Shown here piece after piece: positions 1-34,381 of a DNA stretch of 64,000 bases. The notes under the pieces were generated by a model. It did no database searches, was not told the origin of the DNA, and worked only from the letters and a program-made list of their open reading frames with translations. Source of the stretch: Magnetococcales bacterium (lineage in GTDB: Bacteria; Pseudomonadota; Magnetococcia; Magnetococcales; JADFZT01); NCBI GenBank assembly GCA_015232395.1, contig JADFZT010000020.1:338-64337 (forward strand), read 5' to 3'. A program made the position numbers and the translations under genes. The stretch's first letter is position 1. Each line of letters begins with the position of its first letter.

Positions 1-49
1 AACGGACGGCGTGGGCGGCAAAGCGTCATCAAGGGACAAAAACACGATC

Positions 50-325
50 ATGGACGTCATCATCGCCTACGACATCCACTTGAACAAGACCCGCCGCGCG
101 GTCTTGAAAATATTGCGCGAATGGCGGCTGGACGGGCAGAAATCGGTGCATGAATGCCGCCTGATGCGGGCGGCGGCGGAAGAGTTGTTCATCCAGTTGG
201 GCAGCGCCATCCACCCACGGGACGACAGCCTGCTGCTGGCGCGGGTGGATGGTCGACGGCGCGTATTGAGTCGGGGTACGGGAAGGAGCGATGCCTTTTC
301 CACCTCCTTGCGGTTGGTCGGTTGA
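50..325 (+). CDS. cas2: CRISPR-associated endoribonuclease Cas2
   Basis: 91 aa from ATG 50 (an in-frame GTG at 11 is also possible). MDVIIAYDI...KSVHECRL...DSLLLARVD follows the Cas2 pattern (beta1 YDI, SVFEC-like segment, late D-S-hydrophobic strand). It lies directly upstream of the RT, leader and array. Confidence 0.8.
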   Translation: MDVIIAYDIHLNKTRRAVLKILREWRLDGQKSVHECRLMRAAAEELFIQLGSAIHPRDDSLLLARVDGRRRVLSRGTGRSDAFSTSLRLVG

Positions 326-347
326 TGAGGCGTGAAGGATTGCATGG

Positions 348-1286
348 ATGAGCAGCGGGCAGCCTGGCTGGTATCTGGTCGGATATGACATCTCCTCGCC
401 GCGTCGTCTGCGAAAAATTCACCGGTCCCTGAAAAAACGGGGGCTGGCGCTGGCGCCCCAAACCCTCAACGCCGCCTGGAAAAGTCTCAAGGGGGATAAT
501 GCCGTCTGGATTCCCGGGCTCTCCCGGGCCGACATGGAAAAGAACATTGCGCTGCATTTGATCCAACTGGCCGATGAGTTGCGGACCGGCGCCTATCGAC
601 CCCATCCGACGCGCATGTTCCCGGTGGCCAAGGCCGACGGCGGAAAACGAATCATCTCCGCCTTGACGTTGCGGGACAAACTGGCTCAAAAAACCGTTCT
701 GTGGGCGTTGCGACCCTTGGGAGAGTCGCTTTTTCATTCCGACAGTTACGGTTACCGGCCTGGTCGGTCGGTGGAAATGGCGGTCTCGAAGGCGCGCGAA
801 CATATCCTTTGCGGCCTGGAATGGTTGGTGGACGCCGACATCCGACAATTTTTCGACCGCATTCCCCATGGTCCGCTACGCAAGGTTCTCAAGCGGACAA
901 TCGATGATCGCGAAATGTTGAAATTGATCGACATGTGGTTGGATGTCGGCGCGCCGCGTACCGGTTTTTTGACCAAACGTCGGGGCGTTCCGCAGGGCGG
1001 CGTTCTTTCGCCATTTTTCTGTAACCTCTACCTGACCGGCTTTGATCAGCGGTTGGCGGCGGCCAATCTCCCCTTCGTCCGCTTCGCCGACGATTTTCTC
1101 GTTTTCGCCCCGACCCAAAGGGCGGCGGAGGCGGCACGGACATTCGTCGGCAAAGAACTGAACCGGTTGGATCTGGAACTGCATCCCGACAAGACCCGCG
1201 TGGTTCGCAGTGGTCCAGCCGTCCGATTTCTCGGTCGAAAAATGCCCCGCGCGCCAAAATATGACGCCCCGGATGGCCGCGGGTGA
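348..1286 (+). CDS. CRISPR-associated group-II-intron-like reverse transcriptase with Cas2-like N-terminal segment
   Basis: 312 aa. RT blocks are readable in order: KADGGKRIISALTLRDKLAQKTV (RT1-2), WLVDADIRQFFDRIPH (RT3), RGVPQGGVLSPFFCNLYL (RT4), FVRFADDFLVF (RT5 catalytic xADD box), LELHPDKTRVV (RT6), FLGRKM (RT7). The N-terminus WYLVGYDISSPRRLRKIHRSLKKRG resembles Cas2 beta1-alpha1. No thumb/X, Cas1 or endonuclease domain is seen. Confidence 0.85.
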   Translation: MSSGQPGWYLVGYDISSPRRLRKIHRSLKKRGLALAPQTLNAAWKSLKGDNAVWIPGLSRADMEKNIALHLIQLADELRTGAYRPHPTRMFPVAKADGGKRIISALTLRDKLAQKTVLWALRPLGESLFHSDSYGYRPGRSVEMAVSKAREHILCGLEWLVDADIRQFFDRIPHGPLRKVLKRTIDDREMLKLIDMWLDVGAPRTGFLTKRRGVPQGGVLSPFFCNLYLTGFDQRLAAANLPFVRFADDFLVFAPTQRAAEAARTFVGKELNRLDLELHPDKTRVVRSGPAVRFLGRKMPRAPKYDAPDGRG

Positions 1287-1507
1287 GGGACATGGAAAGC
1301 TATTTTTTTTGTGGAAGCGAAATATTGTTTATGCCTGATTGTCTCTTGTGGGTGTTTTTTTTAAAATTTGTTTGTATTCAATATGTTGCGCATGATAAGC
1401 TGTTTCTTGGCAAACAAGAAAATGACGCAAAAAAAGCTAACTTTATTTGCCTGTTTCTTAGGCAATTTTTGTTCTTTGAAAATCAAACAGTTGCATGGAT
1501 GGAGGGG
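1287..1507 (+). promoter_or_regulatory. CRISPR leader (AT-rich)
   Basis: 221 bp between the RT stop and the first repeat. It is visibly AT-rich with long A/T runs compared with its flanks. Repeat polarity (3' ATTGAGAC handle) places it upstream of the array. No exact promoter is assigned. Confidence 0.6.
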
Positions 1508-3863
1508 GTCCGGACCCCACCCTGATTTCGAAGGGATTGAGACCAAATTAGTATAAGCATAAAAACCCAGCTGTTTTTGTCCGGACCCCACCCTGATTTC
1601 GAAGGGATTGAGACTCATCTAAGGGAGGAAGTTTGTATGCATTGATAAACGTCCGGACCCCACCCTGATTTCGAAGGGATTGAGACCCCTCAGGAGAGGC
1701 TACAAAAACATGTTTCTCTAAGTCCGGACCCCACCCTGATTTCGAAGGGATTGAGACTCACTTGCTTGGTTTGTAGCCCTGGCAATGTAACGTCCGGACC
1801 CCACCCTGATTTCGAAGGGATTGAGACTTGCGATAGAAACCTATCTTGTGTTTCATTGTTTCTGTCCGGACCCCACCCTGATTTCGAAGGGATTGAGACC
1901 ATATCCTACTCCATCTTTATCCTCTGCTTTGTCCGGACCCCACCCTGATTTCGAAGGGATTGAGACTTTTGTGTTCGATGGTTACATTGCCGCCCTGATA
2001 GTCCGGACCCCACCCTGATTTCGAAGGGATTGAGACTTAGGTCAAGCTGGGCGTCAGGCTGTTTGCAACTGCGTCCGGACCCCACCCTGATTTCGAAGGG
2101 ATTGAGACATCATGAGTGCATCGGTGGAGCTTTGGGCGGCAGTGTCCGGACCCCACCCTGATTTCGAAGGGATTGAGACTTTTTCCTCCGCTCATAAAAA
2201 ATGCTTCTCCGAGTCCGGACCCCACCCTGATTTCGAAGGGATTGAGACATGTTGGGAATACGTGATATAATCCCCATTTTCCGTCCGGACCCCACCCTGA
2301 TTTCGAAGGGATTGAGACCGGACAATTTTGGAATGACGGCACTGGGATTAAATGTCCGGACCCCACCCTGATTTCGAAGGGATTGAGACAAAACATCAAC
2401 GCACTCTTTGTCGAAATGGCGATGTCCGGACCCCACCCTGATTTCGAAGGGATTGAGACCTTGCGGGGGGGTAGGCAGGAGACCAAGACCCGCCTGTCCG
2501 GACCCCACCCTGATTTCGAAGGGATTGAGACTTTTTGTATTCCTGCAACCTGCTCCCCCAGTTTTTGTCCGGACCCCACCCTGATTTCGAAGGGATTGAG
2601 ACACTGAAATCTTCCAGTTGTTTAACGATCAATTCAGTCCGGACCCCACCCTGATTTCGAAGGGATTGAGACTCTTAAAATAGGTTTATTTGTTTTTTCA
2701 TCCCAGTCCGGACCCCACCCTGATTTCGAAGGGATTGAGACTCCAGTTGACGGGCGGCACCGAAGGAACCACGTGTCCGGACCCCACCCTGATTTCGAAG
2801 GGATTGAGACCGTTCCCAGGCTGGGTGCTACGAAAAACGTCGCAACGTCCGGACCCCACCCTGATTTCGAAGGGATTGAGACGGTCGGATATACTACAAC
2901 CTTATCCAACGTTGCGTGTCCGGACCCCACCCTGATTTCGAAGGGATTGAGACTTGGGGAATCATAATGGCGAAGATAAAGACGAAGTCCGGACCCCACC
3001 CTGATTTCGAAGGGATTGAGACTCACCAACCGATCGATGGACATCTTGGCGTCGTCCGGACCCCACCCTGATTTCGAAGGGATTGAGACTTATAAAATTG
3101 AGATGCCTTTATTTCCTCCTCTTCGTCCGGACCCCACCCTGATTTCGAAGGGATTGAGACCCTTTGCTGATCGTCCCAATGTAATCACCGTCAGGTCCGG
3201 ACCCCACCCTGATTTCGAAGGGATTGAGACCGCCTTTTCATGAGTACGTAGACACCAAGCTTGGTCCGGACCCCACCCTGATTTCGAAGGGATTGAGACT
3301 GCTCAAAATCGATCCAAAGCACCCGCTCACCCTCGTCCGGACCCCACCCTGATTTCGAAGGGATTGAGACGCCAATAAACACAACGATATTCTTATTGAT
3401 CGTCTGTCCGGACCCCACCCTGATTTCGAAGGGATTGAGACTGCAGGTCTGGGGCATTCCATCCCCGGAATTCCGTCCGGACCCCACCCTGATTTCGAAG
3501 GGATTGAGACCTGGAAGAAGTAGGCCAGTTCAACATTGATGCTCATGTCCGGACCCCACCCTGATTTCGAAGGGATTGAGACTCACGAGCCAAGTTCCAA
3601 CCAACCAGTTCACCGGGTCCGGACCCCACCCTGATTTCGAAGGGATTGAGACGATGGGAAGGGATTTGAGGGTTCCCCGAACTGTATGGTCCGGACCCCA
3701 CCCTGATTTCGAAGGGATTGAGACCTTAAAATAAGATCACATTTTTCTTGGCAGATGTCCGGACCCCACCCTGATTTCGAAGGGATTGAGACAGCCTGAT
3801 GCCGGCGCAGTAGCGTTCCGCCGCGTCGTCCGGACCCCACCCTGATTTCGAAGGGATTGAGAC
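1508..3863 (+). CRISPR. CRISPR array, 34 repeats / 33 spacers, 36-nt repeat GTCCGGACCCCACCCTGATTTCGAAGGGATTGAGAC
   Basis: Repeat starts counted by eye: 1508, 1579, 1651, 1722, 1792, 1864, 1931, 2001, 2073, 2144, 2213, 2283, 2354, 2424, 2496, 2567, 2637, 2706, 2775, 2847, 2918, 2987, 3054, 3125, 3195, 3264, 3335, 3406, 3475, 3547, 3617, 3689, 3757, 3828. All copies look identical. Spacers are ~31-36 nt and all differ. The 3' ATTGAGAC matches the canonical 8-nt Cas6-type crRNA handle. Confidence 0.98.
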
Positions 3864-3878
3864 TGAAGGGCGCTGGAC

Positions 3879-4883
3879 ATGGCTGACATTGCCCATCCAC
3901 ACGACCGCTTTCTGAAGATCCTGCTCTCGAATCCTGTGACGGCGGGAACTCTCTTGCGGGAGCGTCTGCCCAAAGAGATAGCAGAATGCTTGTCGCTGGA
4001 GCCGCCCAGCTTGGTGGATGGGACTTTCATCGACGGTGAGTTTCGTCAGCATCTGACAGATCGGCTGTTCCGGGTGAAGACGGTGGCAGGTGGTGAGGCC
4101 TACGTATACGCGCTCATCGAACACAAAAGCCATCCGGACGACTGGATAGCATTGCAACTTCTGCGGTATATGGTCCGGATCTGGGAGCAGATGCGGGAGG
4201 AGACAGATAGTGGGGGGCGTCTGTCACCCATTGTGCCGCTATTGGTGTACCATGGGAGGCAGACTTGGCAGATCCCACCCCTGTTTTCTGCGTTAGTGGA
4301 TGCAGAGACTTCCTGGCAGAAGCATCTGCTGGATTTTAGGTTTTCGGTGGTGGATCTGGGACGAATCGATGATGCTGCACTTTCTAGGGATGATCGGCTG
4401 CGTGGTGGGTTCCTGGCCCTAAAATGTGTATTTAAAAAGGGATTGAGGCCTGAGACGGTTGCCGGAATCGGTAAAGTTTTGCAGGTTGATCAAGAGCTTG
4501 CCAAGCGAACCTTGCTCTATCTGATTCAAACCTATGAGGAGTTGGATATGGATAGCATTCAGGCGTTTTCGGATGAGGCTTTCCCTGGGAAGGCGGAAGA
4601 ATATAAATCCCTATTTGCCAGGGAGATGATCGCAAAAGGTCGCCTAGAGGGCCGACAGGAAGGCCGACAGGAAGGCCGACAGGAAGGCCGACAGGAAGGC
4701 GAGCAGATCGGCGAGCGGCGAGGTGAAACCAAAGTCCTTCGTCGCCTCCTCTATAAAAAATTTGGAAGCACTCCCCTACCCTCTTGGGTCGAGGACAAAC
4801 TTACTGCCGCCTCCTTGGGTGAAATCGAGGAGTGGTCTGATCGGATTTTGGACGCTCAATCCTTGGACGAGATCTTTGTGTAG
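3879..4883 (+). CDS. Rpn-family recombination-promoting nuclease / putative transposase (YhgA-like PD-(D/E)XK), copy 1
   Basis: 334 aa. HPHDRFLKILLS...GGEAYVYALIEHKSHPDDWIALQLLRYMVRIW...IVPLLVYHG matches the RpnA/YhgA N-terminal nuclease domain pattern. The C-terminus has GRQEG repeats and a LPSWVEDKL...IEEWSDRILDAQSLDEIFV tail. A close paralog lies at 34382-35323. Confidence 0.8.
   Translation: MADIAHPHDRFLKILLSNPVTAGTLLRERLPKEIAECLSLEPPSLVDGTFIDGEFRQHLTDRLFRVKTVAGGEAYVYALIEHKSHPDDWIALQLLRYMVRIWEQMREETDSGGRLSPIVPLLVYHGRQTWQIPPLFSALVDAETSWQKHLLDFRFSVVDLGRIDDAALSRDDRLRGGFLALKCVFKKGLRPETVAGIGKVLQVDQELAKRTLLYLIQTYEELDMDSIQAFSDEAFPGKAEEYKSLFAREMIAKGRLEGRQEGRQEGRQEGRQEGEQIGERRGETKVLRRLLYKKFGSTPLPSWVEDKLTAASLGEIEEWSDRILDAQSLDEIFV
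4650..4697 (+). repeat. In-frame 12-bp tandem repeat (GGCCGACAGGAA x4) inside Rpn copy 1
   Basis: Four perfect head-to-tail units encode (GRQE)x4. Rpn copy 2 has only two related units (GGACGACAGGAA x2) at the same place. Confidence 0.9.
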
Positions 4884-5073
4884 TAATTTCGACTTCACCT
4901 CGGGTACCAAGGCGCAATCGGAAAATGGCCAAAACCTCGTGACTGACAAAATTTACAAGTTGTTGATTTTATTGGGTCTGAGTTTGAACCGGGTTCGTTC
5001 CGCATACCGAGCGTAACCAAAACTTTCTCTGTTTCCGTTTTTTGATATACACAAAAAAACGGAGATTGTTCGA

Positions 5074-5106
5074 ACCGGGTTCTTCCCGGTGCACCATTTC
5101 TTTTTT
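5074..5106 (+). terminator. Possible weak Rho-independent terminator downstream of Rpn copy 1
   Basis: ACCGGG-TTCTT-CCCGGT forms a 6-bp stem. It is followed, after 8 nt, by TTTCTTTTTT. The stem is short and the T-run is displaced. Confidence 0.3.
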
Positions 5107-5317
5107 CAGAGATATTCTCAGGCCGCCCACCCCCAAATGATGCGGTTTTTTTTACGCCAAAATTCCCCAATATTTTCAATGGTTACGGGCATACCCCCCT
5201 ACCCTGCCCCACCAACCTCGTGTCGACCCTCCAACAAAAAATCCCCCATTTTCTCTCTTCTGGCCCAAACTCTCTAAAACCTCGTGTCGATGGATAATCA
5301 AATACTTACGGCAATTT

Positions 5318-5358
5318 GTCCGGACACCGAGTTGGGAATGCGAGTGGGTGACCGAGAC
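5318..5358 (+). repeat. Candidate degenerate CRISPR repeat relic
   Basis: GTCCGGACaccgagttgggaatgCGAgtGGGtgaccGAGAC shares the first 8 nt (GTCCGGAC), an internal CGA..GGG and the terminal GAGAC with the array repeat. A second 3'-end-like piece, GGGTTGAGAC, lies at 5443-5452. Confidence 0.3.
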
Positions 5359-5491
5359 GAACCGGGTTCAAACTTTTATTGAAGAAACGTTCTGGAATCC
5401 CTCCCATGGTTGGTGGGATCGGCTGTAGGTGGATGATGTCCTGGGTTGAGACTTGGCTCGTAATAGGATATGGATAATTATTGGTGGCTCC

Positions 5492-8188
5492 ATGAGGGAG
5501 CACGAAAAATTTCTGGAAACCCAAATTACATTCATGTCAGGCATGGCCAAACGCCACAAACGAAAGAAACGTACCCGCTCGGCAACGCCCGGACAGCTTT
5601 TTCAGAAGGGCAAGGATTTGCTGGCAGCCGGACAATTTCGTCAGGCCATTGAAAATCTCAAATCCCTGAACAAACAGGAACCGGGTGGGCAAGGTTGCGA
5701 GCTTCTGATAACGGCCTATTGGGGGCGTGCCAAGGAGTTGTTTGATAAGGGATTGTTTCGAGAGGCGGCGGTGACATTGGAACAGGCTGACCGTCTGAAT
5801 GGCGCAAGGATCGATACGTCGCTCTTGCTCTCTGCTTGGTGTAATGCCGGGCTTCATGTCAAGGCAGCGCGTCTGTGGGGGGAAAAGAATACGGATACCC
5901 CAGAATTCTCCCACACCCCGGTGGCCGAACTGTTGGCCTGCTTGGCGGTGGTGGATGAAGAAATAGCCAATGCCTTGGGAACGGATCACCCAGTTGGACG
6001 TCATCTGATCCATGCCAGACAGGCTATACAAGCATTGATATTGGATCGACAGCAAGAGGCCCGGGAGGCCACCAAACAGATTCCTGTGCGTTCTTCCCTA
6101 CGGTCTCTGCGTCTGCTCCTGCTTGGAATTTTGGCAACCCGGAGTAATCCCGAATCGGCCATGGGGATCCTGGAAAGAATTCCGGTGGACTCCCCGTTAT
6201 CCCCCATCGCGCGTGTCCTGATCCCCCTTGCCCAGGGTAAACAACCTCAACCGGATTCGGAGGGGGACTCTGAAGGATCCGCCTACAAGATGGCCTTGTT
6301 TCTCGAAGGGGTGGAAAAACCAGCCCAGGAGCTGCTAGGGCAGATTGAACGGTCTCGATCGCGGCCCGATAGGTTGTTCTCAATATTGTTGAACGACAGG
6401 TGGGCCAACTTAATCCCTGAGCAGATTGGACGACAAATTTGCGGTAGCCTGCTGGACCAACATCCCAGAGGGTTATCGAAATATAATAAAAAATTCGGTT
6501 TATTGCCGGCTTGGCGTCGGCACCGCATGGCCGCCCTTGAGGAGGAACGGAAAGGCTATTTGGACACCGCTCTGGATCAGTGGCAGCTCTGCGTGGGACG
6601 CTTAGAAGCGGAAGATGAGGATCTGCCAGAAGCCGAAAAAGGTCCTGTCCGGGCCGCCCTTTTTCGCCACATGGGCGACCTGGCAAATAAAGTCAGTCAG
6701 CTGGATGAAAAGGACCATTGGGCCGATTCCTGGTCTGAACCGATTGCGGAGCAGCGTTTTTCTGAAATCAAATATTTGGAAAGGAGCCTGGAGTCTGACC
6801 CTTCCGACCGCCAGGTTTATCTGCGGTTAATTCACCTCCATGAAAAAAAAGGGAATGCCAAACAGCGCCGCCAAGCCGTGCAACGTGCGGTGAAACACTT
6901 CCCTGAAGATCCCGAGGTACTGGAGGCGGCGATGAACGAAGCCTTCGACGGTGGTGCCTTCAAAAAAGCCGTAAAACTGGCTGGTCAAATCCTTGAGCGC
7001 AATCCAATCAACAATCCGGTGCGCCGTCAGGTGGTGAAGGGCCACCTGATGCATGCCCGGAAAAAGATTAAATCCGGACGCCAGGATTTAGCTGAAAAGG
7101 AACTCAAACTTGCCGAAACGGTAGAACGCCCCCAGATCCGCGATGGTTCAGTTCAAATTTGCCGAGGGGTTATGGCGTTGATGGCAGGAGACAAACGCCA
7201 AGCCGACATCCATATGAAACAGGCTCGCCAAGAGGCCAATCATGCATGTGTAGCGGATTTGATGGCCCTGATGGAGGCCGAACGGATAATCGTGTCCCAG
7301 TCCCTGTTTGGTGCCTTAAAGAAAAAGCTCACTGCAAGCCTGAAAGACACTTCACCGGAACCTGGGTTGCTATTGGATTTGATAGAACGCATAGAAGCGA
7401 GCGGGCGGGAACCATCCTTGAATCCAAAAGCGTGGATACCGGCACTCTCCACCTGGTTAAACAAATGCGCCCGTCTGCCCCTTCCGGTTGATCAACGCCG
7501 TTTGGTCTGCCACTTTCTAGCCGATCATGAAGGGTTCAAGCCACTTGGCGCTTTTGCTCGTGAAGGGATAAAAAAATGGCCTGGAGATCCCTCGTTTCTG
7601 TTCTTCCAGTTGTTTGCGAAATATGAAGGGGATGAATACCGGGTGCCGTATCGGGATCTGAACCGTTTGGACGATGCCATGATGGAAGCAGGTTCGACGC
7701 TGGATCATCGTACCCAGGATCGCATCGGGCATTTCATGTATAACTCCGGTCCCCCCATGCCCTTTGGCTTGCCTGAAATACCTGGAGGAATACCGTTTGA
7801 TTACGAAGAACATCTTGATAACGAAAAATTCCCTATCTTCCCTGAATTTTTTGATCAGCTGGAAGAAAGTCTTGAAGGAGCCAAAAGTGACCCTGAAGAA
7901 GCCATCCAGGCCTTTTTCTCTCTGAAGGCTCTGCAGATATTGGCTGAGTTGGCTCCCCAGGATCGGGGCTTGACGCTGGCAGAGATCAAGGCACACCTCT
8001 ATCGGGAGCTTGTCCCCAGCTTTCCTCTGGGTCCGACTGAAGCCAAACGGTTGATCGATCAATTTATGGAAAACACCAGTTTCGATGAGCCCAACCCGCC
8101 AGTCATTCCACCAGTGCCGCGAAAGCCCCGTAAACCGAAAAAGACCCTGCACAATCCCAGACAGTTGGAATTTGATTTCGATGATTGA
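5492..8188 (+). CDS. Large helical-repeat (TPR-like) protein, first gene of accessory Hsp70 module
   Basis: The open frame runs 5453-8188. Possible starts are TTG 5453 and ATG 5492, 5534 or 5543. It has a basic N-terminus (KRHKRKKRTRS) and TPR-like helical hairpins (e.g. AGQFRQAIENLKSL, KGLFREAAVTLEQADRL, LERSLESDPSDRQVYLRLIHLHEKKGNAKQ). The tail is basic-proline then acidic (PRKPRKPKK...LEFDFDD). Its stop overlaps the next start (ATGATTGA at 8181-8188). Confidence 0.55.
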   Translation: MREHEKFLETQITFMSGMAKRHKRKKRTRSATPGQLFQKGKDLLAAGQFRQAIENLKSLNKQEPGGQGCELLITAYWGRAKELFDKGLFREAAVTLEQADRLNGARIDTSLLLSAWCNAGLHVKAARLWGEKNTDTPEFSHTPVAELLACLAVVDEEIANALGTDHPVGRHLIHARQAIQALILDRQQEAREATKQIPVRSSLRSLRLLLLGILATRSNPESAMGILERIPVDSPLSPIARVLIPLAQGKQPQPDSEGDSEGSAYKMALFLEGVEKPAQELLGQIERSRSRPDRLFSILLNDRWANLIPEQIGRQICGSLLDQHPRGLSKYNKKFGLLPAWRRHRMAALEEERKGYLDTALDQWQLCVGRLEAEDEDLPEAEKGPVRAALFRHMGDLANKVSQLDEKDHWADSWSEPIAEQRFSEIKYLERSLESDPSDRQVYLRLIHLHEKKGNAKQRRQAVQRAVKHFPEDPEVLEAAMNEAFDGGAFKKAVKLAGQILERNPINNPVRRQVVKGHLMHARKKIKSGRQDLAEKELKLAETVERPQIRDGSVQICRGVMALMAGDKRQADIHMKQARQEANHACVADLMALMEAERIIVSQSLFGALKKKLTASLKDTSPEPGLLLDLIERIEASGREPSLNPKAWIPALSTWLNKCARLPLPVDQRRLVCHFLADHEGFKPLGAFAREGIKKWPGDPSFLFFQLFAKYEGDEYRVPYRDLNRLDDAMMEAGSTLDHRTQDRIGHFMYNSGPPMPFGLPEIPGGIPFDYEEHLDNEKFPIFPEFFDQLEESLEGAKSDPEEAIQAFFSLKALQILAELAPQDRGLTLAEIKAHLYRELVPSFPLGPTEAKRLIDQFMENTSFDEPNPPVIPPVPRKPRKPKKTLHNPRQLEFDFDD

Positions 8189-8504: not shown

Positions 8505-9170
8505 TTGGACGATGCCGACAAACAGCTCCTAGTAGAGCGTTTCCAATCCTATCTGGACCAACTGCCCGAAGAAGAATCCACTTTGAATGACGTCTCCGGA
8601 CAGGCTGATCTGGCCAATGTGTACATGGAGATGGCTGGACTGCGCAATGAGGTGGCCCGTGAGGCCCGCCAGGTAAAGGGGGCTTTGGATAAATTCGGAG
8701 AACTTTTCAACACTGTCACCGAAAATCAATCCACTCTGGCGCGCCAGACCCGGGAGATCCACCAAGCCCGTGGCGAAGGCCCCCGGGAGGCGCAACACCA
8801 TCTGCTCCTCCAAATGCTGGACTTTAGGGACCGGTTTGCCGAAAGCCTCAACACCCTCGATGGGTATGCGCTCCCGTGGCGGGTCCGGAGTTTTGGAGGT
8901 AAGGCCCATGCGGCTTGGCTGACAGGGCTGGTTCAAGGCCAGCGGATGTTGTTAAAACGGCTGGACAGAATTCTGGATGCCCAGCGTGTGCAACGTCTGG
9001 AAACCCTGCACCGCCCCTTTGATCCAGAGCGAATGCGGGCAATGGGTACATCATGGGATCCAGATCATCCACCGGGGGTGGTGATTGCCGAAGAGCGTCC
9101 TGGCTACCTGTTGGCTGGCCAAGTCCTACGGCTTTCAGAGGTGACCGTCAACCGGCAAGGGGAAGACTGA
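8505..9170 (+). CDS. GrpE-like nucleotide exchange factor
   Basis: 221 aa from TTG 8505, with GGGAG ~9 nt upstream. It has a coiled-coil N-terminal half. The C-terminal FDPERMRAMG...VVIAEERPGYLLAGQVLRLSEVTV resembles the GrpE beta-domain (FDPnxHeAv...v.v.qkGY.l.grvlRpA.V.V). Confidence 0.65.
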   Translation: MDDADKQLLVERFQSYLDQLPEEESTLNDVSGQADLANVYMEMAGLRNEVAREARQVKGALDKFGELFNTVTENQSTLARQTREIHQARGEGPREAQHHLLLQMLDFRDRFAESLNTLDGYALPWRVRSFGGKAHAAWLTGLVQGQRMLLKRLDRILDAQRVQRLETLHRPFDPERMRAMGTSWDPDHPPGVVIAEERPGYLLAGQVLRLSEVTVNRQGED

Positions 9171-9172
9171 TC

Positions 9173-10951
9173 GTGAATGATATTATTATTGGCATCGACC
9201 TGGGTACTACCAACTCCGAGGTGGCGGTATTTGAAAACGGCCAGCCGCGCCTGATTGGCGACTCCGGGGGCGATCCCATCCTCCCCTCTTTCGTGGGGCT
9301 GTCCGAAGACGGGGTACTGCTGGTGGGACAGAGTGCCAGCAACCAGTATGCGGCTGCCCCTGAGCGCAGTGTCAAGTCAGTCAAACGGCTCATGGGACAG
9401 GATACCCGGATCGATCTGGGTGGAACCAACTATGCTCCCCAGGAAATTTCAGCGATCATCCTCAAAAGGCTCAAGGAGATGGCCGAATCCGACCTGGGAC
9501 AACCGGTCAACCGAGCCGTCATCACCGTACCGGCCTACTTTTCGGATGCCCAGCGGCAGGCTACTCGCGAGGCTGGGACCATTGCCGGATTGGATGTGGT
9601 TCGGATGATCAATGAGCCCACTGCCGCCGCCCTGGCCTATGAGGCCGGGCATGAAGGAATGCGTGACATTCTGGTTTACGACCTGGGGGGTGGGACCTTC
9701 GATGTCTCGATTGTGCGTATGGAACAGGACGTGGTGGAGGTGATTGCAAGTCACGGCGACAATCACCTGGGGGGGGATGATTTTGACCAACTCATCACCA
9801 GCCACCTGCTGGAGCAACTCGAAACCACCCATGGGGTGACGCTTTCTCCAGAAAGTCCCGCTCATGCCCGACTGCTGCGTGCCTCCGAAGCTGCCAAACG
9901 GGTACTGTCGGAATATCCTTTTGTCAACATCGAAGAGGAATTCATCACCGAAAAGGATGGGGTACCGGTTCATCTGAGCCTGGAATTGTCTCGGGATGAT
10001 TATGAGGAAATGATCCAGGAACTGGTGGAACGCACCCTGGAGTCGGTACATGCTACCCTGGATGACGCCAAACTGACCCCGGATGCCATCCAGGAAATTC
10101 TACTCGTGGGCGGTTCAACCCGCACGCCACTGGTGAGGCGGCGACTGGAGGAGATTTTTCATCGTTCGCCCCGGGGGGAGATCCATCCGGATTTGTGCGT
10201 GGCCCTGGGGGCGGCTATCCAGGGGGGAATTGTCAAAGGCGAAGCCGCCAGTGCCGTGCTGGTGGATGTAACCCCCTACACCTTTGGCACCAGCGCCCTG
10301 GGGTTTTTGGATGGCATTGAGACCCCTTTCGTCTACGTTCCCATCATCCACCGCAACACGCCGATTCCGGTCAGCCGCGGCCAAGTGTTTTATACCGTGC
10401 AGGACGATCAGAAGGTGGTGGATGTAAAGGTCTATCAGGGCGAAAATCCGGATGCCTCGCACAACATTCTGATTGGATCTTTTCGTATCGAAGGATTATC
10501 CAAAGCACCAGCCAACAATCCCATCGTCATGACGTTCGATCTGGATCTCAACGGAGTTCTACATGCCTCGGCCCGAGAGAAGATCAGCGGACTGGAGCGC
10601 AGCATTACCATTGACAACGCCATGACCCACTTTGAAGCCGAAGAGATGGACCAGGCCCGTTCCCGGGTGGAAGCCTTGTTCGAAAACGAGGAGGTAATCG
10701 ACAGCACACCCCAGGAGAACATCCCCCAAGGCCAAGAGGATGTCACCCCTGCCCAGCGGCAGCAACATACCGAAGCCCGCGCTCTGGTGGAGAAGGCTGA
10801 ACGAATGCTTGAAGAGGCCAGTGACGAGGATCGCGACGACATGATCAATTTGATCGAAGAGATCCTTCAGGCTCTGGATAAGGAAAATTTCACGGCGTTG
10901 GCAGAAGCCCGGGAGCAGTTGGCGGACATCCTCTACTACATGGAGACCTGA
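9173..10951 (+). CDS. Hsp70-family ATPase (DnaK/HscC-like paralog)
   Basis: Starts at GTG 9173, 3 nt after the GrpE-like stop. Motifs: IGIDLGTTNSEVAV (phosphate-1), DLGGGTFDVSIV (phosphate-2), LVGGSTRTPLVRRRLEE (adenosine) and a substrate-binding domain (VLVDVTPYTFGTSALG), plus a helical lid. Confidence 0.9.
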   Translation: MNDIIIGIDLGTTNSEVAVFENGQPRLIGDSGGDPILPSFVGLSEDGVLLVGQSASNQYAAAPERSVKSVKRLMGQDTRIDLGGTNYAPQEISAIILKRLKEMAESDLGQPVNRAVITVPAYFSDAQRQATREAGTIAGLDVVRMINEPTAAALAYEAGHEGMRDILVYDLGGGTFDVSIVRMEQDVVEVIASHGDNHLGGDDFDQLITSHLLEQLETTHGVTLSPESPAHARLLRASEAAKRVLSEYPFVNIEEEFITEKDGVPVHLSLELSRDDYEEMIQELVERTLESVHATLDDAKLTPDAIQEILLVGGSTRTPLVRRRLEEIFHRSPRGEIHPDLCVALGAAIQGGIVKGEAASAVLVDVTPYTFGTSALGFLDGIETPFVYVPIIHRNTPIPVSRGQVFYTVQDDQKVVDVKVYQGENPDASHNILIGSFRIEGLSKAPANNPIVMTFDLDLNGVLHASAREKISGLERSITIDNAMTHFEAEEMDQARSRVEALFENEEVIDSTPQENIPQGQEDVTPAQRQQHTEARALVEKAERMLEEASDEDRDDMINLIEEILQALDKENFTALAEAREQLADILYYMET

Positions 10952-11523: not shown

Positions 11524-12985
11524 CAGGACTTTCCCCAAAAATTTTCACTCAAAATCAAACGCCAGTTGCCCATAGTCCTGTAATTCCGCAACTGGGCCTC
11601 ACCTGGGAGATCGAGCGCAAACTTCCCGGATTCCGTCGGCCAGGGCATAGAAGCGAAAATCAGGCACGCCGAACACCCGCTTTGATGCTTTCGTCAAATG
11701 CGTGGCCAGGATATCCAACTTCAGCCTCGTCCCCAGGATTACAGTCGTGAAAAAGGCTACGGCGTTGACCAGAACCACCATGTTTTGCAGACGCTCATAG
11801 GTCAAAACTCGAATATCTTCGAGGCTATAGCTTTGTTTAACAAAACGGATCGCCTCCTCAATGCGCCATCTTGAAAAATAGGCGTTTACCACCCATGCCA
11901 CATCCTTATGCCGCCGACGAAGGGGAGTATTCGTCAGCAACATCAGTGGCTCTTTACCCAGCCCCTGCACCACCACCATCCACAGGTGGACTTCGGGACG
12001 TTCAGGCAAACGGACGGGCCGAAAGCCATATTCCAGATCCACCCTGACCTCTTTGCCATGCTCTTCACGCACGATCCATGATGAGTAGCGTAGCGGGCAG
12101 TCCCTGGCCAAATCCGAGGTCGCACGGTGACGCTGGCCCCAAATCAAATGGCGGTTTCCTTTCAGGCGAATGATGAAAGATCTCGAAGCATCCACCATGG
12201 GCTCAAGCAGCGCACCACGATCACCACCACGGTCCATTATCCAAACGCCTCGATTTTCACAGGCCGCAGACACTTGCTCCACTGCCATCAGGATTTCCGC
12301 ATTTTCGCTCAAAAAACCCGGAGCCTCCTGAGAGTATAGGTGGGAGTGGAGCGGAATAATGGCGTTATCCCCATTCTCGACGCCCACCACCTGGCACAAC
12401 CAATAACCAGAGGCAATCTTTCCCGCGCTGCCATCCCTGACTTTTGCCAGAAATTCCATCTTCTTGGCGTAAGGTTTGGTCAGATCAGATGGATCCAGGA
12501 TCAGCAAGGTTCGATCCTGGATCCTGCCGGCTCCTTCCCGTAACACTGAAGCGCCCACCTCTTGGCCTATGGTTTCACGAGCTAGATTACGGGATAACCG
12601 GGTTTCGGTCTTGGACAGAGGTATCCGCTCTTCCAGCGCACGTCCAATCTCAGTCAGACGAACGCTGCCACGGGCCGCAACGCCATACATCACCTCATCC
12701 ACCAACCGCCGTGCCACTTTTCCTAAACCGACTGAAAATCTCCCCGAAAAATGGGGCATCTGGGAGCGGATTTTGGTCGCAGTCTGCGGTATCATGAGAT
12801 GGGGCCTCCTTTTGGTGAGTTGGTGTTCCTGGCTTCGCAACCGGAATCCTACCCCACCGGGGAGCGCCCCTCATCCTGCAAAAAGTCTCTCCAAAAATGC
12901 CCATTTCACTTCCAAACCAACATTTTCTCCCATTGAATCATCGTGTTGCGCGCATCAAACCCTGTTTTTTTTGGGGAAAGTCCTG
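11524..12985 (-). mobile_element. IS4-family insertion sequence (intact, ~1.46 kb)
   Basis: It has perfect 18-bp terminal inverted repeats, CAGGACTTTCCCCAAAAA at 11524-11541 and its reverse complement at 12968-12985. These flank a single DDE transposase ORF. Confidence 0.85.
11599..12795 (-). CDS. IS4-family DDE transposase
   Basis: The frame is open from TTG 12840, and the first ATG is at 12795. The C-terminal YFSRWRIEEAIRFVKQ is the Y-x2-R-x3-E-x6-K signature of IS4-type transposases. Acidic triad candidates are LILDPSDL and WIMDRGGD. Confidence 0.85.
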   Translation of the reverse strand: MIPQTATKIRSQMPHFSGRFSVGLGKVARRLVDEVMYGVAARGSVRLTEIGRALEERIPLSKTETRLSRNLARETIGQEVGASVLREGAGRIQDRTLLILDPSDLTKPYAKKMEFLAKVRDGSAGKIASGYWLCQVVGVENGDNAIIPLHSHLYSQEAPGFLSENAEILMAVEQVSAACENRGVWIMDRGGDRGALLEPMVDASRSFIIRLKGNRHLIWGQRHRATSDLARDCPLRYSSWIVREEHGKEVRVDLEYGFRPVRLPERPEVHLWMVVVQGLGKEPLMLLTNTPLRRRHKDVAWVVNAYFSRWRIEEAIRFVKQSYSLEDIRVLTYERLQNMVVLVNAVAFFTTVILGTRLKLDILATHLTKASKRVFGVPDFRFYALADGIREVCARSPR

Positions 12986-13988: not shown

Positions 13989-16592
13989 TCATCCGTCAAA
14001 CACCATGCTTTCAAGGAACTTTTCAATGGATTCCCTTGCATTTATTATATCATGTTCAAGTGTTTCCGCAATAACAGATATATCTCCAACAGAACCATTC
14101 CGGCTTGAGCGCTCCAGGCTTTCTGCAATACTTCCAACCTTTACTGCACCCAACTGCCAGCATGTTCCTTTCAGTCTATGAGATGAGGCCTTTAAGGATT
14201 TTACATCATCTTTTTTTATATTATTAAGAATGGCATAGGCTTGTTCAAACATGCCGATGAGGGACACGCGTACAACAGATTCAAAATCTTCTCCTCCCAC
14301 ATCATCTCTAAGCTTCCAAAGCCTTCTTTCATCCACGTCAACCATGCCATCATAGGGCTTTTCGATATTTGCCAACATGGTTCCAGCTTTATTTTCATTG
14401 CCCTGCCAGCGGTAGAGAATACGTCGAAGATCGTGCCCACTGACGGGCTTGCATAAATAATCATCCATCCCCGCTGTAATGCAAATGCCCTCATCTCCAT
14501 CCAGTGCAAACGCTGTCAGAGCGATAACGGTGGAATGATGGGAATGGCCAGCGGATTTTTCCCGGTCCCGTAGATGCTTGACCGCCGTAATGCCATCCAT
14601 TTTCGGCATTTGAATGTCCATAAAAATGAGTTCATACTTCTTGCGCGATGTCATTTCCAGAACTTCAAGACCATTCTGGGCTAAATCTGGAGACAACCCC
14701 ATTTTCTTGAAAATTTTCAGGAACACGATTTGATTGACTGGATCATCTTCAGCCAACAGAATCGACGTTGATGGTGAAATAACGGGCTCGGTGATTGCGC
14801 GGTTTCGACCTGACTTTATAGCGCGTTTTCTTGTATCGACGGATTCTATTGACGGCTCAATCGATGACTTGCGCTGAAAGGAGTGGTCAAGGTCAACCAT
14901 CTCCGAGGGAACTCTGCAGAAAAACGCACTGCCTTTTCCCTCCGCGCTTTCTACCCAGATGGTTCCCCCCATGATTTCAATCAGGCGCTTGGAGATGGCC
15001 AGCCCCAGACCGGTCCCTCCAAAACGGCGGTTGGTGGTTTTGTCCGCCTGAACAAAATTCTCAAAAATGGCCTCAAGTCTGTTTTCAGGGATGCCAATAC
15101 CGGTATCCTGAACGATATAGAGCAGAGACGCCGTATCATCATTGCTCTCCGCCATTTTGACGGAAATGGCAATATGACCGTTTTCCGTAAATTTAACCGC
15201 ATTGCCGACCAGGTTGATCAGGACTTGACGAATTCTGCGAAAATCTCCCTTGACCACATCAGGGACATCCGGGTCCACATATTTTTCCAAAGCGAGTTTT
15301 TTTTGCTCAACAGCTGGATAGCGCATGATACTGCGCACGCTTTCGACCAGATCTCTTGGGGAAAACTCCTCTGACAGCAGACCAATTTCGCCGGACTCGA
15401 TTTTCGCCAGATCGAGGATGTCGTTGATCAAAGTCAACAACGCCTGTCCCGACTCTTTGATGACAGCCATGGCCTCGGCTCTCTCCTCCAAGGAGGTAGA
15501 GGCATCCACAAAGTCCGCCATGCCGATGATCGCATTCATCGGCGTGCGGATTTCATGGCTCATGGTCGCCAAAAAGGCGCTTTTGGCCTGGTTGGCCTCC
15601 TCGGCCTGCTCTTTGGCGGTTTTCAGCCTTTCTTCAATCTCCTTTCTCTCCGTATCATCACGGAACGTAAAGACCAAACCGGAAACGCCTTTTTCGTGAA
15701 ATGTGGGAGAAACCGTATAGCTGGCGGGAAAACGGGCCCCTCTTCGACGGTGTAAATATCCATCCAGCACGGAGCGGGGCCTGCCATCCTGCAACGTTTC
15801 AACGACCGGGTCATCTTTCAGGCCGATTTTCTCACCTTTGGATGAGACCGGCCTCAAAATTTTCCGTATGTCTTTGCCATGCAGATCTTCCACGGGCCAG
15901 CCAAGAAGGTTTGCGGCCGAAGGATTTGAGAAGATGATTCTGCGATGATCGTCAACGCCAAGAATCCCCTCCGCCGCCGAGTCCAGTATCCTGGCGTTGC
16001 GTTCAGCAAGCTCGGCAATTTGATCTTCCGTCCGTTTGCGCTCGGTAATGTCAAAAACGACCGTCAGGCAAAGGGCCTGGTCTTTTCCCGGATCTCGCGT
16101 CAAACGGCTCTGCAAAAGACAGTGGACAGGCTCTTTCAGCTTTCGTAGAAGTTGCAACTCATCGCTGGCGCTTTCAAACCTGAACGCCCGTTGAAAATGT
16201 TCACCCAGTTTTTTGCGCATCTCTCTGGGAACATAAGGAAGAAACGGCTTTCCCATGAGTTGGCTTTTGGCGATGCCAAGAAGTTCAGCAGCCGCATGAT
16301 TGGTCTCAATAACTTTTTGCCAGTGGTCCACAACAAAATAGGCCACTGGTGAATCCAGAAAAAGCAGTGAATATTTTTCCAGGAGGGTTTCCATCCGTTC
16401 CCGGGTCAGAAGCAACTCGTCATTCTGACTGCGCAACTCTTCCTGATGGGTATTGAGATCTTCCAGGGTGCGTTCGAGTTGAGCCTCCAGGTCAGAGAAA
16501 CGGGATTCCCGCAGCTTAAAGTCGGCGACCTGTTCTTTCAGGCGTTTGACCTCCTGCTCAACCTCTTTCCGGCTTTTGGTGGTTTTAGACAT
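13989..16592 (-). CDS. Hybrid sensor histidine kinase (coiled coil-PAS-PAS-HisKA-HATPase-REC-HPt)
   Basis: H-box [20 protein letters not shown]-box [13 protein letters not shown]-boxes DTGIGI and [13 protein letters not shown]. Receiver: [11 protein letters not shown]...[13 protein letters not shown]. HPt: [13 protein letters not shown]. Confidence 0.9.
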
Positions 16593-16785
16593 GGCCTAAC
16601 AATTTCTCATCATCGAAAATGGTTGAAAAGCCCAGACATGCGGGCTGAAAATAATATACACTTCAATGACGAAATGCGATACGGTTTCAGGGACTTGATT
16701 CCGTTTTTAGTAGACTTTAAGTAGAGCTGATAGATCTTTAACGTAGAAAATAGAGGTTTTTATTCTTCAACCTCTGGAGGAAACC

Positions 16786-19700
16786 ATGCCCCCTCGTAAA
16801 ACAGGCGCAACGCGCAAAGCCACCGCAAAACGGAAAACCGCCTCCGACCTGGACGCCTCAAAAAAGCCAAGCGCGGGCGGGGAAAAGTCGACGAAGAAAA
16901 GTTCGGCCGTGAAAGATAAAATTTTCGTGGTGGGCATTGGCGCGTCAGCGGGCGGCTTGGAGGCCCTGCGCCCATTGGTGGCCAAACTTCCCGCCAATGC
17001 GCACATGGGCTATGTGGTCGTCCAACATATGGCCCCTCAATACCGGAGCATGATGGTGGAGCTTCTGGCGCGGGAGACTAAAATTCCCGTCATGGAGATC
17101 AAGGACAAAACGCCCATTTCCCCTGGCGTCATCCACATCACGCCTCCCAACCACGATGCGGACATCAAGGATGGCGTCCTTTTTCTCAAACCCCCCACCA
17201 ACCCGGTGGGCCCCAAACCCTCCATCGATAACTTCTTCTCCGCCCTTGCGGAAGATCAGGGTGAAAAAGCCATCGGTGTCATCCTCTCTGGTACAGGCTC
17301 CGACGGCGCGCTTGGCATGCGCACCATCAAGGCGCATGGCGGATTTACTCTGGTCCAGGACCCGGAAACGGCCAAATACAACGGAATGCCTTTGGCGGCC
17401 ATTGAAACCAATCTGATCGACTTGATCCTCTCCCCGGACAAGATAGGCATCAATCTACCTGATATTGTCCAGACTCCCGGCAAGCTTCTTGAGCTGATGG
17501 ATGATGAAAAGTCCGGCTTGTCGGGTCTTGATGAAATTTTCGCCCTGGTCCGTAAACGTACGGACATCGATTTTTCGAAATACAAACAGACCACCCTATG
17601 CCGCCGTATCGAACGCCGCATCAACGCCACGGGAACCAGGGATCTTCCCAGCTACGTCCTGCACATGCGGGACAACCCCGCCGAGGCTGAAAGCCTGGCC
17701 AAGGACGTTCTTATCTCAGTTACGGGTTTTTTCAGAGATAAAGAAGCCTTCCTGGTCATGAAAGAGGTTCTTCAGGAGATCGTCCATAACAAGGAACCTG
17801 GAGATGAAATACGCTTTTGGGTTCCCGGTTGCGCCACCGGTGAGGAGGCCTACTCCATCGCCATTCTGCTTTCGGAACTTCTGGGCATCAAAGTGGGAAG
17901 TTACAAGGTGCAGATATTCGCCACCGATATCGACCTGGAGGCGTTGGAAGCGGCGCGGAAGGGCATTTATCTGGAAGCGGCGCTGAAAGAGGCGCCGCCA
18001 CAATACATCGACCGTTATTTTACCAAGAAGGGCGACAAGTTTCACGTCTCCAAGGATTTGCGCGAGTTGGTCGTTTTTGCCCGCCAGGATCTCGCCAAGG
18101 ACCCACCGTTTGTCCGCGTGGATCTCATCACCTGCCGCAACGTTCTGATCTATTTCAATCAGGAACTCCAGGATCGGGTTTTTTCATCCTTCCATTTTGC
18201 TTTGGCTTCCTCCGGTTACATGTTTCTTGGCAAATCGGAAGCCCTGGGTCAGAGCGCGGACCTTTTTTCGACCTCCAATGCCAAATACCGTATCTACCAG
18301 AAAAAGGTCGGCGTCGGTGATCGATTCGGTCGCGCCCCGCTTTCGGATCGTCCCAAGCCCATCTGGCCGGGGTCGCACAAATCGCCGGATCAGAAAAAAA
18401 TCAGCGTCGAAGAGGCCATGCGCACCACCATCATGCGCATTTACGCCCCGAAAAGCCTGATGGTGGGAGATGACGGTTCGGTCTATCAGATCAATGGCGA
18501 TGTGACCGGATATATGATTTTGGGCTCCGGCAAGGGGGATCTCAACGTCACGCGCATGTTGATTCCGGAATTGCGTGGCGAATTCTGGGCTCTGTTCTCT
18601 CAAGTCAAGAAAACCGGCGACTCGGCCATCGGCTCCATCAAGCCGATCGTTTTCGGCGGAATGCGCAAAGGCGTGCGCATGGGCATTCACCCCGCCACGA
18701 GGGTTTCACAAATCAGCAGTCTTTATCTCATTGGCTTTGAAGAGTTCGACATCCCGGAGAAAAACGATTCTACCGAAGCGAGCGATGGCGTCAATTTAGA
18801 CACGACCAGGGTTCCTGAACTGGAGCAGGAGTTGGTGGCCACCAAGGAGCATTTGCAAACCGTCATCGAGGAGTTGGAAACCTCCAACGAGGAACTGCAA
18901 GCCTTGAATGAGGAGTTGCAGGCTTCCAATGAGGAGATGCAATCCACCAATGAGGAGTTGGAAACTGCCAATGAAGAGTTGCAATCCACCAACGAGGAAC
19001 TGACCACCGTCAACGAGGAGTTGCAGACCCGGACCTCGGAGTTGATGGTCGCCAACAGCGACCTTGAAAACATGCAGAAAAACGTCGGTTACTCCCTCAT
19101 CATCGTCGACCCCAAATTGCGAGTAAAACGGTTTTCGCCGGCCGCCGTAAAATATTTCGGGTTGGCGGCGGAAGATATCGGAGAGGTTATCACTGCCGCC
19201 CCTTCCCATCTGGATATCAAATATCTGAAACAAAAATTGGCGAAGGTCATCGCCTCCGGCAAGGAACACCAGGAGGAAATCCTGACCGACACGCTCTCCT
19301 TGTGGTTCAGAATCGTGCCCTACTACTCTTTGGAGAACAAAATCGAGGGGGCGGTCATCGTCATCATCGATCAATCTGAAATCTACAACATTCGCCAGGA
19401 GTTGGCCCACAGCGAACGCCTGCAACGCCTGATATCCGACTCCATGCCCATGGGCGTGGCGTTGATTGGGCCGGATCAGCGGGTCGTCAATGTCAATCAC
19501 AGGCTTCTGGAGTGGTTTGGCAGCGGTAAGGATATTCTCGGAAAACGCCTTTTTAACGCTTTTGGACGAAAAATCTACGATCACTTGAAACCAGGCGTTG
19601 CCAAAGCTTCCGAGGGCGAATCAACCAGCATTGAGTTGGAACACTCCCCCACAGGGAAGGATATCCAGACGTTTCAACTGCTCATGGTTCCCCACCTGGA

Positions 19701-20145: not shown

Positions 20146-20161
20146 ATACGATATATTGATA

Positions 20162-20328
20162 ATCCTAAATCCGGCAGTTGGGCGTGTGTGGCTGGTGCAG
20201 GATATTGGTTCGCATAGTGAATTGGGAGAAATCGCCGTCACCTGATTGGTCACAAGATTTTCTCCCGATTTGCTTGGTGGATCAAGAGGCTGGGGCATGT
20301 GCGTACGCCCAACTGCCGGATTTAGGAT
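20162..20328. mobile_element. MITE-like element, copy 1 (167 bp, perfect 24-bp TIR)
   Basis: ATCCTAAATCCGGCAGTTGGGCGT at 20162-20185 has its exact reverse complement at 20305-20328. The interior is collinear with, and in inverted orientation to, a second copy at ~41309-41472. Confidence 0.75.
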
Positions 20329-20375
20329 AATGTACCAGATGGACTTTTCCATCCACGAATGCCCTGGAGGCTCCA

Positions 20376-23300: not shown

Positions 23301-23684
23301 AATCTCCGGGAAGCTATAAAGGATCTGAAAACGACGCGGGAACGCTACCGAACTTTGGCGGAGGGATCACTCCAAGGCCTCGTCATCCATCAGGAGGGCC
23401 GGTCTATCTACGCCAATCACGACGTGGCGAAAATTTTTGGATACGCCGAACCGGAGGAGATCCTCAAGCTTGATGGCGTTGGCGCGCTCTTCAGCGACGC
23501 CGTGGGCAAGGGCGGTTCCACGCGGAATTATCCGTTTCCGACCGGGCACGCGCCGAAAAAGGTCCGGGCGATGGGACGAAAAAGGGATGGAAAAAACGTT
23601 CCCCTGCTGGTTTCATCCCAGATCGTGAAATGGGATGGAAGACTGGCGATCAAGACCGCCGTGGTGGATCTGTCGAATGAATGA
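20376..23684 (+). CDS. CheB-CheR-coiled coil-PAS fusion protein, paralog 2
   Basis: It has the same architecture and motifs as 16786-20145 ([38 protein letters not shown] heptad block). Confidence 0.9.
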
Positions 23685-23726
23685 AGCCGAGGAATAGACG
23701 CCGCGAGCTGAGGTTGATGTAAAACC

Positions 23727-24134: not shown

Positions 24135-24212
24135 GATCGATAACCTCTCTGGAAAAAATGGAATGATATCACAAAAAAAGCATGATGCGCCAAATATCGC
24201 CGCGGTTTCATC

Positions 24213-29571: not shown

Positions 29572-29618
29572 TGCGTAGATTTTTACGTTTAAAGTTTACT
29601 GTTTTATTGCGGACAATT

Positions 29619-34355: not shown

Positions 34356-34381
34356 AAAGGTATTTTCCCAGCAGGTTGATA

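Follow-up and report, generated by a model that had tools for sequence, protein, structure and literature searches.

An apparent Cas2-reverse transcriptase fusion in a Magnetococcales CRISPR locus as the probable scar of a deletion that removed cas1

A 64-kb stretch of DNA from a Magnetococcales bacterium (64,000 nucleotides (nt) of contig JADFZT010000020.1, hereafter the window) carries near its start a reverse transcriptase (RT) gene whose product opens with a piece of Cas2 and which is followed by a CRISPR array. Comparison with related loci indicated, with a probability of roughly 85%, that this chimeric gene was produced by a microhomology-mediated deletion of ~1.37 kb within a cas2a-cas2b-cas1-RT operon, by which the fusion was made in frame and the integrase was removed.

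Results

The chimeric reading frame and the deletion junction

The open reading frame (ORF) at 348-1286, which a first-pass annotation of the window had described as an RT with a Cas2-like N-terminus, was confirmed. It starts with ATG, encodes 312 amino acids (aa) and opens with MSSGQPGWYLVGYDISSPRRLRKIHRSLKKRGLALAPQTLNAAWK. When the window was searched by tblastn, residues 1-35 of Cas2b, the second of two Cas2 paralogs, were placed at 348-452 and residues 8-286 of the RT at 447-1283, and the reading frame was open across the junction. No ATG, GTG or TTG was present between 348 and the codon of Met63 (534) when the sequence was read directly, and the ATG at 348 is thus the sole start for the conserved N-terminus of the RT. 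The 312-aa protein was a singleton (P0001, from a 65.8-kb contig of a Magnetococcales bacterium metagenome-assembled genome (MAG); cluster of 1). The complete cas2 gene described upstream was also recovered (cas2a; Pfam Cas2, E = 1.7e-10), ending 22 nt before the ORF; its frame is open from the GTG at 11, with a likely start at the ATG at 50.

The closest homolog of the RT (P0002, 80% identical) is encoded on a metagenome contig, L001, in the order cas2a (94 aa), cas2b (125 aa, MSHDTPGWYLVGYDVASPRRLKKVHRQLKKRGLAVQKSLFF...), cas1, RT, leader and array, and 22 nt separate cas2a from cas2b there. Upstream of cas2a, L001 carries an inverted CRISPR array and then type III-B cmr1-6/cas10 on the minus strand. 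The window Cas2a was 73% identical to that of L001 over residues 4-92. By blastn, the two loci were paired over cas2a and the first 35 codons of cas2b (window 65-452, L001 8273-8660) and again over the RT from codon ~15 (window 468-1251, L001 10043-10826), whereas ~1,367 bp of L001 (8661-10026) had no counterpart in the window; the rest was colinear. The missing interval comprised the complete cas1, flanked by cas2b codons ~36-125 and RT codons 1-7, and tblastn with L001 Cas1 detected no cas1 in the 64-kb window. The hexamer GCGCTG at the junction matched the RT side of L001 at 6 of 6 positions and its cas2b side (GCGGTG) at 5 of 6, a pattern typical of deletion between short direct repeats.

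Based on this comparison, the ancestral order would have been cas2a - cas2b - cas1 - RT - leader - array, and one deletion between GCG(G/C)TG hexamers in cas2b codons 34-35 and RT codons 8-9 would have taken out the last ~90 codons of cas2b, the entire cas1 and RT codons 1-7. What was left of cas2b and of the RT would have met in frame by chance, leaving the RT dependent on cas2b for its ribosome-binding site, its start codon and its first 34 codons. The deletion may have arisen by replication slippage or by microhomology-mediated repair.

Several points weigh against this explanation. Metagenome scans and contig look-ups gave no second copy of the window locus, and the deletion is without independent confirmation because there is one assembly of the locus only. 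The RT is intact and in an open frame, with a ratio of nonsynonymous to synonymous substitution rates (dN/dS) of 0.09, which is also the look expected of a retained, expressed protein. In addition, a cas1 located outside the 64-kb window may act in trans. The exact junction 33-mer had 0 matches in the metagenome scan. An assembly or binning artefact, by which a true genome with intact cas2b-cas1-RT was collapsed or mis-joined in the contig, would be in keeping with a single MAG contig (P0001) of which no independent copy was found. This was nevertheless considered very unlikely, since the shared 6-nt repeat is far under any assembler k-mer, the flanks were perfectly colinear with those of relatives, and a comparable natural deletion was present in two assemblies from two runs of one project (L083 and L084, described below).

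The Cas2-like head

The head of the chimeric protein was found where cas2b should be, 22 nt after cas2a as in L001, and its residues 1-35 were 74% identical to residues 1-35 of L001 Cas2b (tblastn, E = 4e-14). The Cas2 profile search of the N-terminus that had been proposed with the first-pass annotation returned a weak match to Pfam CRISPR_Cas2 over residues 8-31/32 and profile positions 2-26 of 74 (E = 0.015 with the whole protein and 0.001 with a 51-aa fragment). The score of 15.9-19.7 bits was under the gathering score of 23.8 (PF09827), and no NCBIfam match (TIGR01573) was obtained for the head, which is therefore not a full-fold Cas2 (PF09827 / TIGR01573), being sub-threshold and restricted to part of the profile. 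The weak Pfam match and the identity to L001 Cas2b bore out the Cas2-like character of the N-terminus, and the head is, judged from its sequence, a descendant of a cas2 gene with a resemblance beyond chance.

The ferredoxin-like fold of Cas2 is composed of beta1-alpha1-beta2-beta3-alpha2-beta4. Without beta2-beta4 and alpha2, the head cannot form this fold, the dimer interface or a Cas2 domain. In the AlphaFold2 prediction with the family alignment, the predicted local distance difference test score (pLDDT) was 32 for residues 1-10, 44 for residues 11-20 and 54 for residues 21-30, with residues 1-16 under 50 and a low-confidence helix at 18-30, although the head segment had no alignment depth in this run. 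No structure matched residues 1-35 among the best PDB sequence matches. The dN/dS of the head versus L001 was ~0.5, over only 35 codons with too few sites to interpret. Most likely the 34-residue piece of Cas2b has no docking role and is an unstructured leader peptide.

A functional chimera, in which the Cas2 half-fold docks the RT onto the integrase, had been one of the two readings offered by the first-pass annotation. In its wider form, beta1-alpha1 of Cas2b would act as a tether between the RT and either Cas2a or a Cas1-Cas2 encoded at another place, or the fusion would keep a useful RT expressed. The in-frame junction, the undecayed RT and the intact adjoining cas2a are in agreement with such a role, and so is the cas2b start as the only start codon, by which the RT is translated as a fusion only. 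CRISPR-linked RTs without cas1 in the locus have also been reported, in Methanosarcina (PMC5513706) and in one Cas6-RT record (PMC5541045). However, the chimera was judged unlikely and its docking was not upheld. The protein is a singleton, and the head (the WYLVGYD...KKRG segment), the conservation of which in homologs was to be checked according to the first-pass annotation, was found in 0 of 20 aligned homologs. There is no cas1 in the 64 kb, the head spans 25 of the 74 Cas2 profile positions with beta1-alpha1 only, and its pLDDT stays at 32-54. Moreover, an in-frame join is expected by chance in one case of three, L083 with its parallel deletion shows a destructive, out-of-frame join, and the dN/dS of the fragment is about 0.5 versus 0.09 for the RT, over 35 codons only.

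The RT part and its family

The RT part was matched by RVT_1 (Pfam) at residues 94-296 (E = 1.7e-37) and by TIGR04416 (NCBIfam group II intron RT/maturase) at residues 38-300, on model positions 2-268 of 353 (E = 4e-70; 236.6 bits versus a cut-off of 300). Model positions 269-353 were unmatched, so the RT is without the X/thumb domain. The catalytic FADD box was located at residues 246-249, and the ORF stops ~13-18 aa after the FLGRKM block (RT7). Neither Pfam nor NCBIfam detected a Cas1 domain in the 312-aa polypeptide, which is thus not an RT-Cas1 or Cas6-RT-Cas1 fusion, both of which have Cas1 in the same polypeptide. The earlier description of RT blocks 1-7 with a FADD box and with neither thumb nor Cas1 was borne out by RVT_1, TIGR04416 and the end of the ORF. 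With motifs 1-7, an xADD box and group II intron RTs as its closest relations, the protein belongs with the group-II-like RTs; its best PDB sequence match was the GsI-IIC RT (6AR1, residues 37-289, E = 2.9e-39), and the Cas6-RT-Cas1 structure 7KFT also matched the RT domain (E = 1.2e-27). The RT core was predicted by AlphaFold2 with pLDDT >90 and a predicted template modelling score (pTM) of 0.80.

Of the 99 columns with a conservation of 90% or more, the RT deviated at 2, compared with 1 to 14 in relatives, and it carried 17 lineage-specific substitutions versus 14 in the L001 RT. The dN/dS of 0.09 was measured versus L001 at a synonymous divergence (dS) of ~1.4 and reflects mostly pre-deletion history. 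The undecayed RT and the uniform repeats of the array are compatible with a recent deletion. In its substitution pattern the RT gave no sign of acceleration, and the stump, at 35 codons, is too short for dating. The undecayed RT part may retain a residual function.

More than 3,000 RT homologs were found in a large protein collection, and the 120 listed were almost all 275-295 aa long with 84-92% query coverage. All 20 aligned homologs open with MGxLLxKAASPxVLNxAWK at query residue ~27 and end 10-25 residues after FLGRKLP; the absent thumb is therefore a property of the family. Regarding the start, the first-pass annotation had named homologs that begin at the internal Met of ADMEKN, with the upstream part unconserved, as an outcome that would speak against a fusion. 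Homologs were indeed without the upstream part, but they do not start at that Met, their own Met lying ~7 residues upstream of the junction. These ~280-aa CRISPR-linked RTs (P0002-P0120), which in every aligned or listed member end 10-25 residues after RT7 and are without thumb/X, may hold the primer-template with the help of Cas1 or the two Cas2 proteins.

A group II intron remnant was ruled out as a candidate, because neither intron RNA nor an X domain was found. Positions 1-6000, scanned with Rfam at E <= 0.1, gave CRISPR repeats only and no intron RNA domains, and with both the RNA and the X domain absent the element is not a group II intron in the sense of a mobile retroelement. The second reading of the first-pass annotation had been a scar, left by the landing of an RT gene in a cas2 duplicate; a group II intron as the inserted element was considered along with it. 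The group-II-intron-like character of the RT (236 bits with TIGR04416, GsI-IIC RT as best PDB match) is what such an insertion would leave. On the other side stand the absence of intron RNA (Rfam, 1-6000) and of a maturase/X domain, and the residence of the RT beside cas2a, cas2b and cas1 in relatives. In addition, the cross-match between cas2a and cas2b was weak (about 31-33% identity), and cas2b is to be regarded as a conserved, diverged paralog and not as a fresh duplicate. Finally, the window has sequence missing versus relatives and none added. An insertion was accordingly held to be extremely unlikely: the scar itself stood, whereas the landing of an RT in a duplicated cas2 was replaced by an internal deletion of ~1.37 kb, as seen from synteny.

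The ancestral cassette in relatives

To place the window among wider relatives, loci with RTs 40-60% identical were collected from a scan in which each species was represented by one genome. They came from Desulfobacterota, Gammaproteobacteria (Thiohalocapsa, Lamprocystis, Thioploca, Thiotrichales), Candidatus Electrothrix and Acanthopleuribacteraceae. The order cas2a-cas2b-cas1-RT was found in L005, L006 and L008-L013, and RT-cas2a-cas2b-cas1 in L004 and L015. L016 shows RT-cas2a-cas2b on a contig that ends after cas2b, and in L003 the RT is divergent from cas2a, cas2b and cas1. Full-length cas2b and uninterrupted cas1 were present in 10 of the 10 loci checked (L003-L006, L008-L013). In every relative of at least 40% identity with recovered flanks, the RT was a resident gene beside cas2a and cas2b, and beside cas1 where the contig reaches. 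The full setting of an RT next to cas1, cas2 and an array was seen in L001, L003-L006 and L008-L013, while the window has cas2a and the array, with cas1 deleted. Since the intact cassette is widespread in relatives, the state of the window is derived, by loss.

Other cas1 lesions

The search with the L001 Cas2b protein gave two matches only, one of which (P0122) led to L083, from a sister sample of L001's project (ERR2281802, ENA); the same locus was recovered as L084 in the Logan assembly of another run (ERR2281803). L083 contains, at 3166-4146, cas2a, a cas2b of 91 aa whose tail is frameshifted, and an RT stub of 123 aa. Compared with L001, ~1,635 bp are missing, from cas2b codon ~75 to RT codon ~138, cas1 included, and the junction (~3689-3694) lies on CGG microhomology and is out of frame. 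The breakpoints differ from those of the window, and the L083 deletion is independent of the window deletion. In L001, cas1 itself (8950-10017) has an in-frame TGA at 9502-9504 where L005 has Trp, which splits the gene into ORFs of 184 and 167 aa.

Three related loci therefore carry three cas1 lesions: an in-frame deletion (window), an out-of-frame deletion (L083) and a nonsense codon (L001). Two of the three are deletions with breakpoints in cas2b and RT, and that of the window alone is in frame; one in-frame join of two is about what chance predicts, with one in three expected. The lesions could also be seen as selection against acquisition and not as neutral decay, with Cas2b(1-34)-RT expressed and selected, having outlived its integrase to serve a Cas1-Cas2 elsewhere, its strand-helix pairing with Cas2a, or a role outside adaptation; only a slim chance was given to this.

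In both L001 and L083, CRISPR arrays flank the adaptation operon in inverted orientation (7360-7882 and 11106-12443 in L001; ~129-2793 and 4388-5186 in L083). The window begins at cas2a, and its position 1 would be preceded by a matching upstream array, where the contig probably broke, and by the effector genes.

Leader and CRISPR array

The chimeric ORF is directly followed by a 221-nt leader and the array, in agreement with its earlier placement before a CRISPR leader. A thumb or Cas1 encoded in a downstream frame, a candidate raised with the first-pass annotation, was ruled out, since the AT-rich leader and the array directly follow the ORF. The repeat-proximal ~70 nt of the leader were 74% identical to the L001 leader (blastn). 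All 34 repeats are identical, that at the trailer end included, despite a locus without an integrase. Matches of Rfam CRISPR-DR35 on the array were weak. The repeats end in ATTGAGAC, which resembles the 8-nt 5' tag of CRISPR RNAs (crRNAs) in Cas6-processed systems. No spacer was common to the window, L001 and L083, no self-targeting spacer was found, and the 36-nt repeat had 0 matches in the metagenome scan.

Acquisition in Vibrio vulnificus YJ016 depends on each of Cas1, Cas2A and Cas2B (PMC6821258). With the integrase and the whole Cas2b gone, the window locus should, by analogy, be unable to acquire spacers by itself. Without acquisition, the array would be a frozen memory, at most feeding effectors encoded elsewhere.

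Other genes of the window

In the 64 kb, tblastn with L001 proteins detected no homolog of cmr, cas10, cas6 or cas1, and Pfam on 30 further long ORFs detected neither these nor any other Cas family. The gene set that defines type III-B (cas10/cmr2 with cmr1, 3, 4, 5 and 6) was present in L001 and not within the window. The coordinates of all features are listed in Table 1. Downstream of the array and the first Rpn/YhgA-like gene, which abuts the trailer end of the array, signalling and housekeeping genes were found. Within this Rpn/YhgA-like gene, at 4650-4700, lies a perfect (GGCCGACAGGAA)x4 tandem repeat, which is translated into GRQE repeats. The CheB-CheR-PAS pair is located within a block (13989-32740) of PAS histidine kinases, response regulators and a GGDEF-EAL protein. 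The DDE_Tnp_1 and rve_3 ORFs look like insertion-sequence remnants.

Table 1. Features of the window, in order of position
Feature	Position	Strand	Description	Basis
cas2a	50-325	+	complete first Cas2 paralog	Pfam CRISPR_Cas2, E = 1.7e-10, profile 1-67 of 74
Chimeric ORF	348-1286	+	312 aa; RT residues 8-286 preceded, in the same frame, by Cas2b residues 1-34/35	ORF listing
cas2b remnant	348-446	+	start codon and beta1-alpha1 part with WYLVGYD Asp motif	tblastn, spacing, weak Pfam
Deletion junction	447-452	+	hexamer GCGCTG, common to cas2b and RT sides	three-way alignment
RT part	453-1286	+	fingers and palm, RT motifs 0-7, FADD	RVT_1, TIGR04416, L001 identity
CRISPR leader	1287-1507	+	AT-rich, 221 nt	direct reading
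CRISPR array	1508-3863	+	34 identical 36-nt repeats (GTCCGGACCCCACCCTGATTTCGAAGGGATTGAGAC), 33 spacers of 31-36 nt	pattern scan, TRF
Rpn/YhgA-like gene (Transposase_31)	3879-4883	+		E ~2e-54
TPR-containing protein	5453-8188	+	911 aa, function unknown	
Hsp70-family gene	9053-10951	+	Hsp70 domain from residue 45 onward	
DDE_Tnp_1 transposase	11599-12840	-		
CheB-CheR-PAS protein, first tandem paralog	16786-20145	+	~1,100 aa; CheB methylesterase, CheR methyltransferase, PAS	
CheB-CheR-PAS protein, second tandem paralog	20376-23684	+	~1,100 aa; CheB methylesterase, CheR methyltransferase, PAS	
rve_3 integrase-core ORF	33321-34355	-		
Rpn/YhgA-like gene (Transposase_31)	34376-35323	+		E ~2e-54

Discussion

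The apparent Cas2-RT fusion is no new CRISPR-RT architecture and should be kept out of any catalogue of these; what the window contains is a decayed copy of an RT-CRISPR locus of a known kind. Our work provides a cautionary case, in which a short but persuasive domain fragment that heads an enzyme can be what a deletion has left, in frame, of a neighbouring gene, and such cases of fragment fusion are quickly settled by synteny with relatives. Three close RT-linked adaptation modules have lost cas1 differently, and all have kept long, clean arrays. Type III systems often shed adaptation genes, and the three-lesion pattern fits this tendency. The pattern suggests that spacer acquisition is dispensable or costly in this RT-linked lineage.

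Unfused group-II-like RTs beside cas1 are known from type III loci of clades 1, 9 and 13 and from some of clades 4, 5 and 7 (PMC5541045, PMC6013744). Clade 6 is characterized by two different Cas2 proteins, which are also frequent in clade 13 (PMC6821258), and RTs unfused to Cas1 together with two Cas2 paralogs have been documented for RT-CRISPR clades 6 and 13 (PMC6821258, PMC6013744). Nothing relevant on natural Cas2-RT or RT-Cas2 fusions was found in the literature search. By the architecture described in those reports (PMC6013744, PMC6821258), the RT family of the window would fit clade 13 (Toro et al. 2018), which equals branch 7 of Silas et al. 2017 (PMC6013744, PMC5513706). As in clade 13, a separate group-II-like RT stands in this family beside cas1/cas2, a leader and an array, with type III effectors in L001; unlike in clade 13, the window has cas1 and most of cas2b deleted and the RT fused to the cas2b stump.

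The module of Vibrio vulnificus YJ016 (clade 6) shares with this family the two Cas2 proteins and the linkage to Cmr, and its operon lies between two arrays, as do those of L001 and L083 (PMC6821258). The RT of V. vulnificus is fused to Cas1, whereas that of the window is separate, without Cas1 and without the whole Cas2B. With group II intron RTs (6AR1, TIGR04416), the window RT shares the fingers and palm with RT0-RT7, but the whole ~280-aa family is without the X/thumb, maturase, DNA-binding and endonuclease domains and without intron RNA. The Cas6-RT-Cas1 protein of Thiomicrospira (7KFT/7KFU; PMC8102632) has a homologous RT domain and is likewise set in CRISPR adaptation. Its fusion, however, joins whole domains and is conserved in its clade, while that of the window joins a 34-residue fragment to the RT in a singleton protein.

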